A stretch of 64,000 nucleotides of DNA, taken from NCBI RefSeq assembly GCF_988243305.1, contig NZ_OZ547136.1; one strand, given 5' to 3'. The translations under genes were made by a program, and so were the position numbers. This document shows, one piece after another, positions 5,069 through 52,197 of the stretch; the first letter of the stretch is position 1, and the number at the start of each line of letters is the position of its first letter. The notes under the pieces were generated by a model. That model saw only the letters and a list, made by a program, of their open reading frames with translations. It was not told the DNA's origin and ran no database searches.

Positions 5069-5156
5069 TGGCGGTGAGGGGGGGATTCGAACCCCCGATA
5101 CGTTGCCGTATACACACTTTCCAGGCGTGCTCCTTCAGCCACTCGGACACCTCACC
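5069..5156 (-). tRNA. serX: tRNA-Ser (GGA), serX
   Basis: Reverse complement reads GGTGAGGTGTCCGAGTGGCTGAAGGAGCACGCCTGGAAAGTGTGTATACGGCAACGTATCGGGGGTTCGAATCCCCCCCTCACCGCCA: 88 nt, long variable arm, CCA end. Confidence 0.95.
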
Positions 5157-10701: not shown

Positions 10702-11455
10702 GATGAAACCCCGCTTTTTTTATTGATCGCACACCTGACAGCTGCCTCTAAAATAGAAGCACCAGAAGTACTGACAGATGTTGCACTGCTGTGTGTAGTA
10801 ATAAATCAGCCCTAAATGGGTAAAATATAAAACTAATGGATTACATGTGATTTCAATCTAGCCATTACAAATCTTAAATCAAGTGTTAAACATGTAACTA
10901 AATGTAACTCGTTATATTAAAATGTTAATCTTAAGGTTTTGTTAAGTTTAGAAATGATAGAAAAGTTGTACATTTGGTTTTTATTGCACAATTTTAAAAA
11001 ATCATACAAATGGTGCTAACTTACTAATAATGCATATAAAAAATATTTCGGTGTAGTCCTTTCGTCATGTAAAACGTTGTTGTTTTTTCTTCACACCTCC
11101 GTGGACAATTTTTTACTGCAAAAAGACGAGGTTTGTCACGGCTTGTGCGCAAGACATATCGCAGCAATCAGCGACGGGCAAGAAGAATGGCTGTCTGGTG
11201 ATTTTTGATTGCGGAAAACGGAGATTTAAAAGAAAACAAAATATTTTTTTGCGTAGATAACAGCGTATTTACGTGGGTTTTAATACTTTGGTATGAACAA
11301 AAAAAGAAAAATACAACGCGCGGGTGAGTTATTAAAAATATTTCCGCAGACATACTTTCCATCGTAACGCAGCGTTAACAAAATACAGGTTGCGTTAACA
11401 ACCAAGTTGAAATGATTTAATTTCTTAAATGTACGACCAGGTCCAGGGTGACAAC
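10702..11455. promoter_or_regulatory. csgD-csgB divergent intergenic control region
   Basis: ~750-bp AT-rich non-coding stretch between divergent csgD and csgB starts; known multi-factor regulatory region. Confidence 0.8.
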
Positions 11456-20919: not shown

Positions 20920-21015
20920 TTGCCTGATGCGCTACGCTTATCAGGCCTACATCGCTCCTGCAATGTGTTGATTTTGCAAGATTTTGTAGGTCGGATAAGG
21001 CGTTCACGCCACATC
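20920..21015. repeat. REP/BIME palindromic elements
   Basis: GCCTGATGCGCTACGCTTATCAGGCCTAC and GTAGGTCGGATAAGGCGTTCACGCC REP-like units downstream of opgH. Confidence 0.8.
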
Positions 21016-30115: not shown

Positions 30116-30220
30116 TAATCTCTATGCTCCGGCTGAAGGGATGTTTTTGCCGGACACAAAGGATAAGCGGAAACGTTTTCCTTTGCACGAAAAATAAAGG
30201 GCGCGAATGCGCCCTCGTGA

Positions 30221-36921: not shown

Positions 36922-37338
36922 TCAGATCGAAATCTTTTTACTGCCGCGATGGGTTGTTGAGGTCTGACCGTTCGCTCCATATAGCGTCGGTTCCTGATGC
37001 GGTTTCAACATTTCCAGCGCCTGTTGATTGCGCTCAATCTGTCCTTCCAGTAACCAGCCGTTATGTTGATTCATTTGGCGTAGTTGCTGCGTTTTCACAG
37101 TAATTGCCTGCCAGCGTTGACTAATATCAACGCTATTTGCTGTATTGGGTTCTTTCCTGCGTAATTGTTCGAGGTAATCCAGCGTCGCCAGCAGAGAGCT
37201 TTTTTGTTCTGTAATCCATTGCAACTGGCTGCCGTTGATCTGCCCCATAGAGAGATGTTGCTGCTCTTGATCCATTACCGTTTTGAGATCGTTAAGCACA
37301 GCGGACATCTGGTCGAGGATCTCTGCAAGACGTGTCAT
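36922..37338 (-). CDS. flgN: Flagellar export chaperone FlgN
   Basis: 138-aa ORF. Confidence 0.95.
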   Translation of the reverse strand: MTRLAEILDQMSAVLNDLKTVMDQEQQHLSMGQINGSQLQWITEQKSSLLATLDYLEQLRRKEPNTANSVDISQRWQAITVKTQQLRQMNQHNGWLLEGQIERNQQALEMLKPHQEPTLYGANGQTSTTHRGSKKISI

Positions 37339-37342
37339 ACGA

Positions 37343-37636
37343 TCAGTTACTCTGCAAGTCTTGCTGAGCTTCGTTGATCAGCGCATCGGCAATTTTGCCT
37401 GTGTCCATTTTTAGTTCACCGTTACGAATCGCCAGTTTTAACGCTTCGACACGTTCAAGATTGATATCACTGCTGCCGGGTTGCATCAGTTTTGCTTGCG
37501 CGTCGCTTAACGTCACACTGGTGCTGGTGGAGGCGGTTGTTTTTGCCGCCCGGGTGTTCGTTACCGGCGCGTCAGTGGTTTCGCGCGGTTGAACGGTGCT
37601 TACGGGCTTCAGAGGCGAAGTGCGATCAATACTCAT
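37343..37636 (-). CDS. flgM: Anti-sigma-28 factor FlgM
   Basis: 97-aa ORF. Confidence 0.95.
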
Positions 37637-37679
37637 GGTTTATTCCTCATTGAGGGCGCTTTTATCATGTGTTGCTTAT

Positions 37680-37708
37680 TTATCGGCAAGGGACGGGTAA
37701 TCTTTAAC
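37680..37708 (-). promoter_or_regulatory. Sigma-28 (FliA) class 3 promoter for flgMN
   Basis: Minus strand reads TAAAGATT-N11-GCCGATAA versus consensus TAAAGTTT-N11-GCCGATAA. Confidence 0.75.
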
Positions 37709-37711
37709 AGC

Positions 37712-38371
37712 TTACAGGTTTATAAGAATATTCCCATCTGCATCAACAACGCCGCTGACCACCTGTCCCGATACCATGCGCACCCGCGCATTCTGTGCGA
37801 CGGCAGCATTGTTCAGCGCCTGACCTTCTGCGTTGGCGCTAAACCCATCACCGCTGGCGATCACGTTGACGCGTTGTCCCGCTTTTACCCGCCATGCCTG
37901 GCGAAACTGGGTTAACTGGATAGGTTGATCGGGTGATAGATCGCGCAGGCTAACGGCATCAACAAGTTGATTGATATCCAGCACCGTACGCGGTGGCAAG
38001 GTGTCCAGCCGTCCGCGTTTCAGTTTGACATTGCCAGCTTCCAGCTTTCCTCCCCGCACAATGGGCATTGCGGCAACCACATAATTTCCTGTGGCCTGCA
38101 CATTAACCTGTAAATATCGTTTGTCGTTACCGCAGCGTGCCAACACATTCACATTGCCCCACAGGCGGGAATTATTGCTCATCGAAAGCAATGGCTGCTC
38201 GCACGGCGGTAGTAGATTGGGCGCTGTACGAATAGAAACACGAACCTCATCACTTACCCCCGCGAGCTGGGCGCTAAAAAAGGTGTGCAATTGCGATGTG
38301 AGATTGCTCGCCGCACTTAACGGACTGAACAGTATCGCGATGATCGCCACGCTACGTTTTATTGCCAGCAT
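37712..38371 (-). CDS. flgA: Flagellar P-ring assembly chaperone FlgA
   Basis: 219 aa with signal peptide. Confidence 0.95.
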   Translation of the reverse strand: MLAIKRSVAIIAILFSPLSAASNLTSQLHTFFSAQLAGVSDEVRVSIRTAPNLLPPCEQPLLSMSNNSRLWGNVNVLARCGNDKRYLQVNVQATGNYVVAAMPIVRGGKLEAGNVKLKRGRLDTLPPRTVLDINQLVDAVSLRDLSPDQPIQLTQFRQAWRVKAGQRVNVIASGDGFSANAEGQALNNAAVAQNARVRMVSGQVVSGVVDADGNILINL

Positions 38372-38525
38372 TTTCGCCCCCTGCCATTTCTACAACGTGA
38401 ATTGTACCTGTCCGCAATGACCATCAACGGCATAAATAGCGACCCATTTTGCGTTTATTCCGCCGATAACGCGCGCGTAAAGGCATTTAAGCTGATGGCA
38501 GAATTTTGATACCTGCGGAGGAGAT
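38372..38525. promoter_or_regulatory. flgA-flgB divergent promoter region (class 2, FlhDC-dependent in K-12)
   Basis: 154-bp gap between divergent flgA and flgB starts; binding sites not mapped here. Confidence 0.6.
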
Positions 38526-39361: not shown

Positions 39362-40057
39362 ATGTCCATTGCGGTAACCACCACCGATCCGACAAATACC
39401 GGCGTCAGCACCACCAGTAGTAGTTCGCTCACGGGCAGCAACGCCGCAGATTTACAAAGCAGTTTTCTGACTTTGTTGGTGGCGCAGCTGAAAAACCAGG
39501 ACCCGACCAATCCAATGGAAAACAACGAGCTGACGTCGCAATTGGCTCAAATCAGCACGGTCAGCGGGATTGAAAAACTCAATACCACGCTCGGATCTAT
39601 TTCCGGACAGATTGATAACAGCCAGTCGTTACAGGCCAGTAACCTGATCGGTCACGGCGTGATGATCCCCGGCACCACTGTTCTTGCGGGAACCGGCAGT
39701 GAAGAAGGGGCTGTGACCACGACCACGCCGTTTGGTGTTGAGCTGCAACAGGCGGCAGACAAAGTTACGGCCACCATCACCGATAAAAATGGCGCGGTTG
39801 TCCGTACCATTGATATTGGTGAACTGACCGCCGGAGTCCACAGTTTCACCTGGGACGGTACGTTGACTGACGGCACCACTGCGCCGAACGGTTCTTACAA
39901 CGTAGCGATTAGCGCCAGTAACGGTGGTACACAACTGGTTGCCCAGCCGCTGCAGTTTGCTCTGGTGCAGGGTGTGATCCGCGGCAACAACGGTAATACG
40001 CTGGATCTCGGCACTTACGGCACCACCACCCTCGACGAAGTACGGCAGATAATTTAA
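39362..40057 (+). CDS. flgD: Flagellar hook cap protein FlgD
   Basis: 231-aa ORF. Confidence 0.95.
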   Translation: MSIAVTTTDPTNTGVSTTSSSSLTGSNAADLQSSFLTLLVAQLKNQDPTNPMENNELTSQLAQISTVSGIEKLNTTLGSISGQIDNSQSLQASNLIGHGVMIPGTTVLAGTGSEEGAVTTTTPFGVELQQAADKVTATITDKNGAVVRTIDIGELTAGVHSFTWDGTLTDGTTAPNGSYNVAISASNGGTQLVAQPLQFALVQGVIRGNNGNTLDLGTYGTTTLDEVRQII

Positions 40058-42062: not shown

Positions 42063-42180
42063 TTAAACGATTGATGACATTGCAATAAAAGCGCGCGGAC
42101 TATTCTCTCGCCCATTTTGGGAGAGGTTAGGGTGAGGGGAAATGCGCACCGCCGCGTGCTTCTGCTCTGCTTGTCACTAA

Positions 42181-42981
<801 letters not shown>

Positions 42982-43743: not shown

Positions 43744-44841
43744 GTGATTAAATTTCTCTCTGCATTAATTCTTTTACTGGTTACCACGGCGGCTCAGGCT
43801 GAGCGTATTCGCGATCTCACCAGTGTTCAGGGGGTAAGGCAAAACTCACTGATTGGCTATGGCCTGGTGGTGGGGCTGGATGGAACTGGTGACCAGACAA
43901 CCCAGACGCCGTTTACCACACAAACGCTTAATAACATGCTCTCACAGCTGGGAATTACCGTTCCGACGGGCACCAATATGCAGCTAAAAAACGTCGCTGC
44001 GGTAATGGTGACGGCGTCACTTCCGCCGTTTGGACGCCAGGGGCAAACCATCGATGTGGTGGTATCTTCCATGGGTAATGCCAAAAGCTTGCGTGGCGGT
44101 ACGTTGTTGATGACACCGCTTAAGGGCGTTGACAGTCAGGTGTATGCGCTGGCGCAGGGCAATATTCTGGTTGGCGGCGCAGGAGCCTCCGCTGGCGGTA
44201 GCAGTGTTCAGGTGAACCAACTGAACGGTGGACGGATCACCAATGGTGCGGTTATTGAACGTGAATTGCCCAGCCAGTTTGGCGTCGGGAATACCCTTAA
44301 TTTGCAACTTAACGACGAAGATTTCAGCATGGCGCAGCAAATCGCTGACACCATCAACCGCGTGCGTGGATATGGCAGCGCCACCGCGTTAGATGCGCGG
44401 ACTATTCAGGTGCGCGTACCAAGTGGCAACAGTTCCCAGGTCCGTTTCCTTGCCGATATCCAGAATATGCAGGTTAATGTTACCCCGCAGGACGCTAAAG
44501 TAGTGATTAACTCGCGCACCGGTTCGGTGGTGATGAATCGCGAAGTGACCCTCGACAGCTGCGCGGTAGCGCAGGGAAATCTTTCAGTAACAGTTAATCG
44601 CCAGGCCAATGTCAGCCAGCCAGATACACCGTTTGGTGGTGGGCAGACTGTGGTTACTCCACAAACGCAGATCGATTTACGCCAGAGCGGCGGTTCGCTG
44701 CAAAGCGTACGTTCCAGCGCCAGCCTCAATAACGTGGTGCGTGCGCTCAATGCGCTGGGCGCTACGCCGATGGATCTGATGTCCATACTGCAATCAATGC
44801 AAAGTGCGGGATGTCTGCGGGCAAAACTGGAAATCATCTGA
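43744..44841 (+). CDS. flgI: Flagellar P-ring protein FlgI
   Basis: 365 aa; GTG start. Confidence 0.93.
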
Positions 44842-45782
44842 TGATCAGCGACAGCAAACTACTGGCAAGTGCGGCCTGGGATGCACAATCGCTCAACGAA
44901 CTTAAGGCGAAAGCGGGCGAAGATCCGGCGGCAAATATCCGTCCGGTGGCCCGCCAGGTGGAAGGGATGTTCGTGCAGATGATGTTGAAAAGCATGCGCG
45001 ACGCTTTACCAAAAGATGGCCTGTTCAGCAGCGAGCACACTCGCCTGTATACCAGTATGTATGACCAGCAGATTGCTCAACAGATGACGGCGGGCAAAGG
45101 TCTGGGGCTGGCAGAGATGATGGTTAAACAGATGACGCCAGAACAACCATTGCCAGAGGAGTCCACGCCAGCAGCACCGATGAAATTCCCGCTCGAAACC
45201 GTGGTGCGTTATCAAAATCAGACGCTTTCGCAGCTGGTGCAAAAGGCCGTACCACGTAACTACGATGATTCGCTGCCGGGTGACAGTAAAGCATTCCTCG
45301 CGCAACTCTCGCTGCCAGCCCAACTGGCAAGCCAGCAAAGTGGTGTGCCACATCATTTGATCCTCGCTCAGGCGGCGCTGGAATCTGGCTGGGGACAACG
45401 GCAAATCCGCCGTGAAAACGGCGAGCCGAGCTATAACCTGTTTGGCGTCAAAGCCTCTGGCAACTGGAAAGGGCCAGTCACTGAAATCACCACGACTGAA
45501 TATGAAAATGGCGAAGCGAAGAAAGTAAAAGCGAAGTTTCGGGTCTACAGCTCGTATCTGGAAGCATTGTCGGATTACGTTGGGCTGTTAACGCGTAACC
45601 CGCGCTACGCCGCCGTGACGACCGCCGCGAGTGCGGAGCAGGGGGCGCAGGCCCTACAGGACGCGGGCTATGCCACCGATCCTCACTATGCCCGCAAACT
45701 CACCAACATGATTCAGCAGATGAAATCGATAAGCGACAAGGTGAGCAAAACCTACAGCATGAACATTGATAATCTGTTCTGA
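44841..45782 (+). CDS. flgJ: Flagellar rod assembly protein / peptidoglycan hydrolase FlgJ
   Basis: 313 aa; ATG overlaps flgI stop by 1 nt. Confidence 0.93.
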   Translation: MISDSKLLASAAWDAQSLNELKAKAGEDPAANIRPVARQVEGMFVQMMLKSMRDALPKDGLFSSEHTRLYTSMYDQQIAQQMTAGKGLGLAEMMVKQMTPEQPLPEESTPAAPMKFPLETVVRYQNQTLSQLVQKAVPRNYDDSLPGDSKAFLAQLSLPAQLASQQSGVPHHLILAQAALESGWGQRQIRRENGEPSYNLFGVKASGNWKGPVTEITTTEYENGEAKKVKAKFRVYSSYLEALSDYVGLLTRNPRYAAVTTAASAEQGAQALQDAGYATDPHYARKLTNMIQQMKSISDKVSKTYSMNIDNLF

Positions 45783-45787
45783 ATAAC

Positions 45788-45814
45788 TCAAGTCCGGCGG
45801 GTCGCTGCCGATAA
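45788..45814 (+). promoter_or_regulatory. Sigma-28 class 3 promoter for flgKL
   Basis: TCAAGTCC-N11-GCCGATAA about 35 nt upstream of flgK start; perfect -10 element, weaker -35. Confidence 0.65.
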
Positions 45815-45847
45815 TACTCTGTAATTGAAGGCTTATAAGGAACCTCC

Positions 45848-47491
45848 ATGTCCAGCTTGATCAATAACGCCATGAGCGGACTGAACGCGGCCCAGGCGGC
45901 GTTAAATACGGCAAGTAATAATATCTCCAGCTATAACGTTGCCGGATATACCCGCCAAACCACTATTATGACGCAGGCCAATAGCACGTTGGGCGCTGGC
46001 GGCTGGGTTGGCAATGGCGTCTACGTTTCTGGTGTGCAGCGTGAGTATGATGCGTTTATTACCAACCAGTTACGTGCGGCGCAGACGCAAAGTAGCGGCC
46101 TGACTGCCCGCTATGAGCAGATGTCGAAAATCGACAATATGCTCTCCACCAGTACCTCTTCGCTGGCAATACAGATGCAGGATTTCTTCACCAGCCTGCA
46201 AACGCTGGTGAGTAACGCGGAAGACCCGGCAGCGCGCCAGGCGCTGATTGGGAAATCAGAAGGGTTGGTGAATCAGTTTAAAACCACCGATCAATATCTG
46301 CGCGACCAGGACAAACAGGTCAATATCGCGATAGGTGCCAGCGTTGATCAGATCAACAATTACGCTAAACAAATCGCCAGCCTGAACGATCAAATCTCCC
46401 GCCTGACAGGCGTGGGGGCAGGGGCGTCACCTAACAATCTGCTGGATCAACGCGATCAACTGGTGAGCGAATTAAACCAGATTGTTGGCGTAGAAGTCAG
46501 CGTTCAGGATGGTGGCACTTATAATATCACGATGGCCAATGGCTACTCACTGGTTCAGGGAAGTACGGCGCGGCAACTTGCGGCAGTTCCTTCCAGCGCC
46601 GACCCTTCTCGTACGACTGTCGCTTATGTTGATGGGACGGCAGGCAATATTGAGATCCCGGAGAAATTACTGAATTCCGGGTCACTGGGCGGCATTCTGA
46701 CATTCCGTTCTCAGGATCTTGACCAGACGCGTAATACGCTTGGACAACTGGCGCTGGCATTTGCCGAGGCTTTCAACACCCAACACAAAGCCGGATTTGA
46801 TGCTAACGGCGATGCTGGTGAAGATTTCTTTGCTATCGGTAAGCCCGCGGTTCTGCAAAACACGAAAAACAAAGGTGACGTTGCGATCGGTGCAACGGTA
46901 ACTGATGCCTCCGCGGTACTGGCGACAGATTACAAAATCTCGTTCGATAATAATCAGTGGCAGGTCACCCGCCTTGCCAGTAATACCACTTTTACGGTGA
47001 CGCCGGATGCCAACGGTAAAGTGGCATTTGATGGTCTGGAGTTGACGTTAACAGGAACGCCTGCCGTTAACGACAGCTTCACACTGAAACCGGTAAGTGA
47101 CGCCATCGTCAACATGGATGTATTAATCACCGACGAAGCGAAAATCGCCATGGCGAGCGCAGAAGATGCGGGTGATAGCGACAACCGCAACGGTCAGGCC
47201 CTGCTCGATCTGCAAAGCAACAGTAAAACGGTGGGCGGTGCGAAATCCTTTAACGACGCTTATGCCTCGTTAGTGAGTGATATCGGTAATAAAACCGCGA
47301 CGTTGAAAACCAGTAGCACCACGCAAGGTAATGTGGTGACGCAGCTTTCCAATCAGCAGCAGTCGATTTCCGGTGTCAATCTCGATGAGGAGTACGGAAA
47401 TCTGCAACGTTTTCAGCAGTATTACCTCGCGAATGCGCAGGTTCTGCAGACGGCAAACGCGATTTTTGATGCGCTGATTAACATTCGCTAA
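45848..47491 (+). CDS. flgK: Flagellar hook-associated protein 1 FlgK
   Basis: 547-aa ORF. Confidence 0.95.
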   Translation: MSSLINNAMSGLNAAQAALNTASNNISSYNVAGYTRQTTIMTQANSTLGAGGWVGNGVYVSGVQREYDAFITNQLRAAQTQSSGLTARYEQMSKIDNMLSTSTSSLAIQMQDFFTSLQTLVSNAEDPAARQALIGKSEGLVNQFKTTDQYLRDQDKQVNIAIGASVDQINNYAKQIASLNDQISRLTGVGAGASPNNLLDQRDQLVSELNQIVGVEVSVQDGGTYNITMANGYSLVQGSTARQLAAVPSSADPSRTTVAYVDGTAGNIEIPEKLLNSGSLGGILTFRSQDLDQTRNTLGQLALAFAEAFNTQHKAGFDANGDAGEDFFAIGKPAVLQNTKNKGDVAIGATVTDASAVLATDYKISFDNNQWQVTRLASNTTFTVTPDANGKVAFDGLELTLTGTPAVNDSFTLKPVSDAIVNMDVLITDEAKIAMASAEDAGDSDNRNGQALLDLQSNSKTVGGAKSFNDAYASLVSDIGNKTATLKTSSTTQGNVVTQLSNQQQSISGVNLDEEYGNLQRFQQYYLANAQVLQTANAIFDALINIR

Positions 47492-47502
47492 GGGGAGATA
47501 AA

Positions 47503-48456
47503 ATGCGTTTCAGTACCCAGATGATGTACCAGCAAAACATGCGCGGCATCACCAATTCTCAGGCAGAATGGATGAAGTACGGCGAACAGATGTCGACGGG
47601 TAAGCGAGTCGTTAACCCTTCAGATGATCCCATTGCTGCATCACAAGCTGTTGTTCTCTCCCAGGCACAGGCGCAAAACAGCCAGTACACGCTGGCGCGT
47701 ACTTTCGCCACTCAAAAAGTGTCACTGGAAGAGAGTGTACTTAGCCAGGTCACCACCGCTATCCAGAATGCTCAGGAAAAAATTGTCTACGCCAGCAATG
47801 GCACCTTGAGTGACGATGACCGGGCCTCGCTGGCTACGGATATTCAGGGGCTTCGTGACCAGTTGCTGAATCTGGCGAACACCACTGATGGTAACGGGCG
47901 CTACATTTTTGCCGGTTATAAAACAGAAACTGCGCCGTTTAGTGAGGCAGACGGCGAATATGTTGGCGGAGCAGAAAGTATTAAACAACAGGTCGATGCT
48001 TCGCGTTCGATGGTGATAGGGCACACGGGTGACAAAATTTTCGACAGTATTACCAGCAACGCGGTAGCGGAACCAGACGGTAGCGCTTCTGAAACCAATC
48101 TTTTTGCCATGCTGGATAGCGCCATCGCAGCCCTGAAAACGCCGGTCGCGGATAGCGAAGCGGATAAAGAAACCGCCGCTGCGGCACTGGATAAAACCAA
48201 CCGCGGACTGAAAAACTCGCTGAACAATGTGCTGACTGTTCGCGCGGAATTAGGCACGCAGCTGAACGAACTGGAGTCGCTGGATTCATTAGGTAGCGAT
48301 CGCGCTTTAGGGCAAACGCAGCAGATGAGCGATCTGGTTGATGTGGACTGGAATGCAACTATTTCATCTTACATCATGCAGCAAACGGCATTGCAGGCAT
48401 CGTATAAAGCATTTACCGATATGCAGGGATTGTCGCTCTTCCAGCTCAACAAATAA
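47503..48456 (+). CDS. flgL: Flagellar hook-associated protein 3 FlgL
   Basis: 317-aa ORF. Confidence 0.95.
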   Translation: MRFSTQMMYQQNMRGITNSQAEWMKYGEQMSTGKRVVNPSDDPIAASQAVVLSQAQAQNSQYTLARTFATQKVSLEESVLSQVTTAIQNAQEKIVYASNGTLSDDDRASLATDIQGLRDQLLNLANTTDGNGRYIFAGYKTETAPFSEADGEYVGGAESIKQQVDASRSMVIGHTGDKIFDSITSNAVAEPDGSASETNLFAMLDSAIAALKTPVADSEADKETAAAALDKTNRGLKNSLNNVLTVRAELGTQLNELESLDSLGSDRALGQTQQMSDLVDVDWNATISSYIMQQTALQASYKAFTDMQGLSLFQLNK

Positions 48457-48496
48457 TTTCGCTTTAAAACATATCATGAAACTGGGTATGTTTTGT

Positions 48497-48533
48497 CTGC
48501 CCGCTCTGGGATCGCCGGGGCGGGCATTTTTTT
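48497..48533 (+). terminator. Rho-independent terminator after flgL
   Basis: GC-rich hairpin GCCCGC...GCGGGC followed by T7. Confidence 0.7.
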
Positions 48534-48602: not shown

Positions 48603-48630
48603 ATAAAAAAGCCCTGGCAGTTACCAGGGC
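48603..48630 (-). terminator. Rho-independent terminator after rne
   Basis: Hairpin GCCCTGGCAGTTACCAGGGC followed on the minus strand by a T-tract. Confidence 0.75.
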
Positions 48631-48650
48631 TTGATTGCTTTAGCTAATTA

Positions 48651-51836: not shown

Positions 51837-52197
51837 CGTAACTTACTCATTATTCTTACATTGACGACTAAGCTGCGGGCAAAGTAACGCCTTTCCGGGT
51901 GTGAACCGATGGCCTCGTGTCTAGTCGCGTCGCCAACCTCACGGTTATCGTCAGCTCAAAGAGGCGCAGAGTGTCGGTTGCCCGTTTTTCATGCGGAAAA
52001 ACAGCGCAATTATCAAAGAAACAGACTGGGTATTACTCTCCAGAAATATTTCCATCTACCGGTAAGGACTGCAACCCGCAGCCCGCTAACTGCCTGAAAG
52101 ATCAATACGTCTTACGCCATTGCTGCGTGGATGATCGGTCGGGCAAAATGGGTTATTCCGTAAAATTTCTTGTTTTAACAAGGATGGACACGGAAAC
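51837..52197 (-). promoter_or_regulatory. rne 5' untranslated leader (autoregulatory in K-12)
   Basis: Long non-coding region upstream of rne start, divergent from rluC; extent taken from K-12 knowledge and is approximate. Confidence 0.6.

Follow-up and report, generated by a model that had tools for sequence, protein, structure and literature searches.

FliA promoters of the flgMN and flgKL operons lie within class 2 read-through transcription in an Escherichia coli flagellar region

The flgMN and flgKL operons in the 64,000-nucleotide stretch of DNA analysed here (the window) are each preceded by a promoter for RNA polymerase carrying FliA (sigma-28), and each of these promoters is internal to read-through transcription from a class 2 operon, a reading to which we assign a probability of about 0.97. 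The motifs, their positions, the match statistics and the conservation were observed directly, and FliA occupancy and FliA-dependent expression come from papers on the identical K-12 sequence; the exact transcription starts, and promoter activity in the window's own strain, are what we infer. Both promoters are already known, as part of the textbook flagellar cascade and as RegulonDB entries.

Position and sequence of the two promoters

The region matches E. coli chromosomes at 100% identity and is annotated there as flgN-flgM-flgA / flgB, and the gene order of the window (murJ, flgNMA, flgBCDEFGHIJ, flgKL, flgO, rne) is that of K-12. Both promoter 28-mers and both entire intergenic gaps match K-12 base for base, and the K-12 promoters flgMp (RegulonDB ECK120009891) and flgKp (ECK120009892) agree with those of the window in 28-mer, gap, gene order and spacing to the start codon. 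The promoters are thus without difference from K-12, whereas the window's strain differs elsewhere, in the flgF-flgG spacer and in scattered coding substitutions. This spacer (42063-42198, 136 nt) could be aligned neither with the 171-nt spacer of K-12 (REP-like palindromes) nor with that of a divergent Escherichia; a weak sigma-28 holoenzyme SELEX peak (6.7) lies in the K-12 flgF/flgG spacer.

Matches to Rfam in the window that exceed the gathering score include the rne 5' UTR element (51861-52197, minus strand), the SraB small RNA (54058-54226, plus strand) and, all on the minus strand, the PyrC leader (30116-30165), ES056 (10757-10848), ES036 (CssrF; 20943-20985) and a tRNA (5072-5156). Across the E. 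coli collection, the flg region is missing from one or two of 5426 genomes, and its match lies on a plasmid-labelled replicon in five records.

At flgM the minus strand of the window reads gctgtTAAAGATTacccgtcccttGCCGATAAataagcaacacatg...ATG. The initial annotation, made from the sequence alone, had placed a near-consensus sigma-28 motif on this strand in the flgA-flgM gap, and such a motif is indeed present: TAAAGATT-N11-GCCGATAA runs from 37706 to 37680, entirely inside the 75-nt gap. Its -35 element TAAAGATT (37699-37706) can be read directly and has one mismatch to TAAAGTTT, its spacer ACCCGTCCCTT (37688-37698) is 11 nt long, and its -10 element GCCGATAA (37680-37687) is the exact consensus. 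The range originally given, 37680-37708, is right at its start and two bases too long at its end, the exact motif stopping at 37706. Compared with TAAAGTTT-N11-GCCGATAA, the site agrees at 15 of 16 positions, the only mismatch being an A for T at position 6 of the -35. Five nucleotides separate the flgA stop codon TAA (37714-37712) from the -35, and 43 nt lie between the end of the -10 and the flgM ATG at 37636, such that the site is intergenic and faces the gene. The class 3 start is predicted at 37672-37673 on the minus strand, 7-8 nt past the -10, which would give a leader of 36-37 nt.

Downstream of this site on the minus strand lie flgM (37343-37636), encoding the 97-aa anti-sigma-28 factor and identified from its open reading frame and from how identical or nearly identical E. 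coli records are annotated, and flgN (36922-37338), encoding the FlgK/FlgL export chaperone, co-transcribed with flgM and likewise identified from open reading frame and annotation. Upstream lies flgA (37712-38371, minus strand; open reading frame), from which the FlhDC-dependent class 2 flgAMN transcript crosses the promoter into flgM. Most Escherichia loci have 43 nt between the -10 and the flgM ATG, and one labelled Escherichia sp. has 60 nt; among the related loci (L003-L082), most other genera have about 59-66 nt here and a few Buttiauxella loci 43-45 nt. These distances indicate that the Escherichia flgM class 3 leader would be about 17 nt shorter than that of most relatives. The small RNAs OmrA and OmrB are known to target this leader.

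At flgK the plus strand of the window reads TGAataacTCAAGTCCggcgggtcgctGCCGATAAtactctgtaattg...ATG, and the motif TCAAGTCC-N11-GCCGATAA occupies 45788-45814 inside the 65-nt flgJ-flgK gap. The perfect -10 element claimed by the initial annotation at 45807-45814 on the plus strand is borne out, the sequence there being exactly GCCGATAA (for which GCCTTTAA is an example of a point-mutated version). The -35 element TCAAGTCC (45788-45795), read directly, has three mismatches to TAAAGTTT, with a C at positions 2, 7 and 8, and is followed by the 11-nt spacer GGCGGGTCGCT (45796-45806), such that the site agrees with TAAAGTTT-N11-GCCGATAA at 13 of 16 positions. As at flgM, the site is intergenic and faces the gene: 5 nt separate the flgJ stop codon (45780-45782) from the -35, and 33 nt separate the end of the -10 from the flgK ATG at 45848. 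The class 3 start is predicted at 45821 on the plus strand, 7 nt past the -10, with a 27-nt leader.

The plus-strand genes around this promoter are flgJ (44811-45782; open reading frame), with which the class 2 flgB operon ends and past which its transcript continues into flgKL; flgK (45848-47491), encoding hook-filament junction protein 1 and identified from its open reading frame, the K-12 annotation and an alignment of the junction; and flgL (47503-48456), encoding hook-filament junction protein 2 and identified from open reading frame and K-12 annotation. The flgKL transcript is predicted to end at 48456-48533 on the plus strand, the position of K-12 FlgO in the flgL 3' UTR together with an intrinsic terminator. 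FlgO, a sigma-28-dependent small RNA that is released by processing of the flgL mRNA's 3' UTR (PMC10578931), was placed by local offset from K-12 flgO (L001 12987-13064), and its strong terminator, at 48498-48526, supplies its 3' end and is built from a G+C-rich stem of 12 pairs with a T run behind it. Another hairpin, which is bidirectional, occupies 48609-48632 in the flgL-rne interval.

Match statistics and conservation

We built a 28-column scoring matrix from 23 published FliA ChIP-seq sites scoring above 4, leaving out flgMN and flgKL. These ChIP-seq-verified training sites score from 9.1 to 28.7 bits, and both promoters fall inside this range: a matrix scan for FliA promoters, the check that had been proposed along with the motifs, recovered flgMN at 27.5 bits (per-position p 1.5e-11) and flgKL at 16.2 bits, with 14.8 bits in its -10 half and 2.6 bits in its -35 half. 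The best scores in 200 Markov-shuffled windows had a mean of 14.4 (sd 1.7) and a maximum of 19.7, and the flgMN match is beyond chance. Matches scoring at least as high as flgKL are expected by chance about 0.19 times per 64-kb window on both strands, and by score alone flgKL is indistinguishable from chance across the window; inside the 65-nt gap and on the correct strand, the expected number of matches of its strength is about 1e-4.

A search for the consensus TAAAGTTT-N11-GCCGATAA with up to three mismatches returned three sites in the window, with 0.55 expected by chance: flgMN (one mismatch), flgKL (three) and one within flgD (three). The flgD site (39760-39787, plus strand; CAAAGTTACGGCCACCATCACCGATAAA), which is the same in K-12 and absent among the 52 published FliA ChIP-seq sites, scores 17.8 bits. 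An equal score is reached by TACAGAATTGTCGCATAATGCCGTTAAC at 61357-61384 on the minus strand, antisense within a 269-aa open reading frame (60769-61578). Both sites outscore flgKL, and neither is known to have a ChIP-seq peak.

The -10 sequence GCCGATAA itself occurs 11 times in the window, compared with 2.1 expected from dinucleotide shuffles. We rejected a biological meaning for this excess: three occurrences are the intergenic flg sites, and seven of the eight others are in phase with codons that E. coli uses often, reading GCC-GAT-AAx or, as complement, xTT-ATC-GGC. The excess is therefore attributed to codon usage, which dinucleotide shuffles do not model. The third intergenic occurrence, at 38462-38469 on the plus strand, lies in the divergent flgA-flgB region, 57 nt before the flgB ATG. 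It was rejected as a third FliA promoter, its -35 half scoring -0.8 bits and the whole site 11.3 bits, and a FliA promoter upstream of flgB was likewise rejected because flgB expression stays at 0.0018 of wild type in an flhD deletion supplied with FliA. Since flgB is not rescued by FliA, we regard this sequence as part of a class 2 promoter region.

We scanned species-representative genomes for FlgM, which gave 80 loci from 17 named Enterobacteriaceae genera with at most 10 kb of flank each, enough to include both promoters; the flgM search took the best matrix match within 160 nt upstream, at the 79 loci with enough upstream DNA. A FliA-type site precedes flgM at all 79 (19.9-28.2 bits) and flgK at 64 of 65 loci (11.4-25.1 bits), the exception being a metagenome-assembled genome. 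By comparison, when 21,640 control windows, each 130 nt long, were drawn from the same loci, only 0.9% reached at least 14 bits, and those were mostly these two promoters themselves.

Conservation follows the promoter elements. Before flgM, TAAAG and TGCCGAT (the T adjoins the -10) are invariant across the 79 loci and the spacer is always 11 nt; information content per column is 1.80 bits for the -35 and 1.70 bits for the -10, compared with 0.96 for the spacer and 0.8-0.9 for the flanks. The corresponding values before flgK are 1.67 for the -35, 0.53 for the spacer, which is of fixed length and nearly random, 1.77 for the -10 and about 0.7 for the flanks. The flgM -35 takes the form TAAAGATT, TAAAGAAT or TAAAGGTT in related loci and never that of the full consensus TAAAGTTT. 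Among distinct related sequences, the flgK -10 is GCCGATAA in 41, GCCGATAC in 10 and GTCGATAA in 6, and the first six bases of the flgK -35, TCAAGT (45788-45793 in the window), with a C at position 2 where the consensus has an A, are found in 56 of the 57 distinct sequences, which come from 17 named genera. Also conserved are the C just before this -35 and the T just before GCCGATAA.

At closer range, the promoter regions of a divergent Escherichia (88% identity) carry substitutions only outside the -35 and -10, in the spacer and flanks. Among E. coli genomes, the 40-mer reaching from just before the -35 to the start site is identical in 5207 of 5425 for flgM and in 4946 of 5424 for flgK. The -35 begins 4-7 nt past the upstream stop codon in most loci (a few meaningless negative distances, produced by the frame-picking heuristic, were ignored). 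Coding constraint was ruled out as the cause of -35 conservation, since in most loci the element begins after this stop codon.

FliA occupancy, expression and dual class 2/3 control

The 28-mers of the window are, verbatim, the flgMN and flgKL entries of the table of 52 FliA ChIP-seq sites published for K-12 by Fitzgerald et al. 2014 (PMC4183435, Table 2), where TAAAGATTACCCGTCCCTTGCCGATAAA (flgMN) has a score of 48 and TCAAGTCCGGCGGGTCGCTGCCGATAAT (flgKL) a score of 47; ChIP-qPCR at flgMp gave an enrichment of about 22-fold (PMC4183435). Genomic SELEX with the sigma-28 holoenzyme gave peaks of 15.0 in the flgA/flgM spacer and 27.2 in the flgJ/flgK spacer (PMC5493296). The description of the flgKL -35 as the weaker of the two is thus correct with respect to the consensus, from which it departs at three positions, but does not carry over to binding, with nearly equal ChIP-seq scores and the higher SELEX peak at flgKL.

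Transcription starts given for K-12 agree with these positions. The RegulonDB starts of flgMp (1129388) and flgKp (1137574), listed in coordinates of an older genome version (PMC4183435, Table S3), correspond through their capital A and capital G to window positions 37673 and 45821, respectively. Both lie 7 nt past the -10, as predicted for sigma-28, and both are inferred positions: RegulonDB assigns them the single evidence code 'human inference of promoter position', and they are therefore not mapped starts. Romilly et al. 2020 built a flgM::gfp fusion with flgM from +1 to +105, joined after codon 23, from which our arithmetic gives a 36-nt leader and a start at 37672, 8 nt past the -10. Neither position was found, in either genome version, in the searchable portion of the Cappable-seq (PMC4782308) and SMRT-Cappable-seq (PMC6131387) data.

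Published expression data separate the contributions of FliA and FlhDC. Relative to wild type, qRT-PCR gave flgK values of 0.21 in a fliA deletion, 0.003 in an flhD deletion and 1.44 in an flhD deletion with plasmid-borne fliA, and the corresponding flgM values were 0.23, 0.016 and 3.37 (PMC4183435, Table S2). The restoration of both genes by plasmid-borne fliA in the flhD deletion indicates that FliA is sufficient for their expression. In the same experiments FliA failed to rescue flgA (0.012) or flgB (0.0018) in the flhD deletion (PMC4183435, Table S2), and the FliA-dependent starts must therefore lie downstream of flgA and of flgB. A microarray study of a fliA deletion likewise found flgM down 6.9-fold and flgK down 5.5-fold (PMC1935009). 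Furthermore, among lacZ fusions to all 52 FliA sites, FliA-dependent activity was reported for 15 of the 20 intergenic sites, and flgM and flgK are not among the intergenic failures that are named; the same study describes the well-characterised flagellar FliA promoters, fliL excepted, as conserved in sequence (preprint 10.1101/188474).

FliA is not the only source of flgMN and flgKL transcripts. The FlhDC-dependent class 2 flgAMN transcript includes flgMN as well, and read-through from flgB reaches flgKL; an RT-PCR product spanning flgJ-flgK in K-12 is FlhD-dependent (PMC4183435). We found no terminator-like site on the transcribed strand of either the flgA-flgM gap (minus) or the flgJ-flgK gap (plus). 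With the preceding gene in an FlhDC-activated class 2 operon and no terminator in between, flgMN and flgKL each have two transcript sources and, because upstream class 2 transcription reads through into them, are dual class 2/3 operons. The original statement that both fit class 3 regulation is accordingly accurate as to the FliA promoters and incomplete as to the operons, which retain about 20% of their mRNA without fliA and receive read-through.

Transcription of flgMN and flgKL solely by FliA holoenzyme, that is, a strict class 3 assignment, is very improbable. Both operons are among the 'commonly accepted' class 3 operons and both have strong FliA ChIP-seq peaks, but 21-23% of flgK and flgM mRNA remains in the fliA deletion, compared with 0.004 for fliC (PMC4183435, Table S2). 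In K-12 RNA-seq of a fliA deletion, moreover, flgM fell from 451 to 318 and flgK from 318 to 138, changes that were not significant (PMC4183435). The residual mRNA and these non-significant changes fit dual control, and much of flgM and flgK expression may, under those RNA-seq conditions, come by the class 2 route. Together with the product across flgJ-flgK, the known class 2 status of flgAMN and the lack of a terminator in either gap, these data show that neither operon depends on FliA only; for K-12 the strict assignment is already refuted by the residual expression without fliA and by the flgJ-flgK read-through product.

Even less probable is that the gaps hold sigma-70 promoters which drive the downstream genes instead of FliA, with the GATAAT inside GCCGATAAT serving as the -10. 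This hexamer, at 45810-45815, does match five of the six bases of TATAAT, but a scan of the transcribed strand of both gaps found no sigma-70 hexamer pair, and the collapse of flgK and flgM expression in the flhD deletion, which FliA alone reverses, indicates that there is no promoter independent of both FlhDC and FliA. Finally, that one or both motifs are chance matches with no promoter function, which would be likelier for flgKL given its three -35 mismatches, its unexceptional score across the window and the two higher-scoring sites without a reported ChIP-seq peak, has a negligible probability and is already refuted by the recurrence of the flgK site at the same place in related loci despite its randomised spacer, by the small number of matches expected in the flgJ-flgK gap, and by the published binding at flgKL and FliA rescue of flgK.

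In the best-supported picture, the two FliA promoters, each internal to class 2 read-through, operate as follows. During early assembly, flgMN and flgKL receive class 2 transcription that began at the promoters of flgA and flgB. On completion of the hook-basal body, FlgM is exported and FliA thereby freed, and the FliA holoenzyme binds the -35 and -10 elements, 11 nt apart, with predicted initiation 7-8 nt past the -10. The flgMN promoter constitutes a negative feedback, because FliA makes more of its own inhibitor, and the flgKL promoter yields both the proteins of the hook-filament junction and FlgO.

Related sigma-28 systems and the flgKL -35 element

The class 3 promoters of flgMN and flgKL in Salmonella enterica were reportedly described by Gillen and Hughes in 1993, by Kutsukake and Ide in 1995 and by Wozniak et al. 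in 2010. The arrangement is the same as in the window, with a FliA promoter just past the flgA or flgJ stop codon that overlaps the class 2 operon. Salmonella loci have TAAAGATT-N11-GCCGATGA before flgM and TCAAGTCC-N11-GCCGATAA before flgK; they differ in their spacer sequences, in a flgM -10 that ends in GA, and in the distance from the flgM -10 to the ATG (59 nt, compared with 43 nt in Escherichia).

Both promoters of the window share with the enterobacterial sigma-28 consensus TAAAGTTT-N11-GCCGATAA (Ide, Ikebe and Kutsukake 1999) the same two blocks, the 11-nt spacing and the long -10. The tar site has exactly this consensus (PMC4183435, Table 2) and is FliA-only, its RNA-seq value falling from 251 to 0 in the fliA deletion, whereas flgMN and flgKL are dual class 2/3. 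Closer in their regulation are fliAZY, fliDST and fliLMNOPQR, which combine FliA occupancy with FlhDC-dependent transcription and show little RNA-seq effect of the fliA deletion. The two promoters of those operons, however, overlap or adjoin at one site, whereas the class 2 promoters serving flgMN and flgKL lie further upstream, by one gene (flgA) for flgMN and by nine (flgB to flgJ) for flgKL, and dual control is exerted via read-through.

For these two known promoters the value as a discovery is small, and they serve rather as a calibration case in which both were located to the base from sequence alone. The flgKL promoter illustrates that a site no better than chance by score can still be fully functional and that, for alternative-sigma promoters, position and conservation are more informative than nearness to the consensus.

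The -35 patterns of flgM and flgK, as they appear in the alignments of related loci, suggest selection for particular sub-consensus elements. For flgKL in particular, the non-coding TCAAGT is kept although the spacer, like the 4-7 nt that lead from the flgJ stop codon to the -35, is close to random, and we tentatively consider it possible, though somewhat doubtful, that its sub-consensus -35 is held by selection rather than being a product of decay. To our knowledge, and short of a dedicated search, no paper has made this point of a conserved sub-consensus flgKL -35, which is a small and testable one on promoter tuning. If it is true, the strength or timing of flgKL expression would be tuned by a fixed sub-consensus -35 or, alternatively, the position of the flgK -35 would serve some additional purpose, for example as a signal within the flgJ-flgK read-through mRNA.
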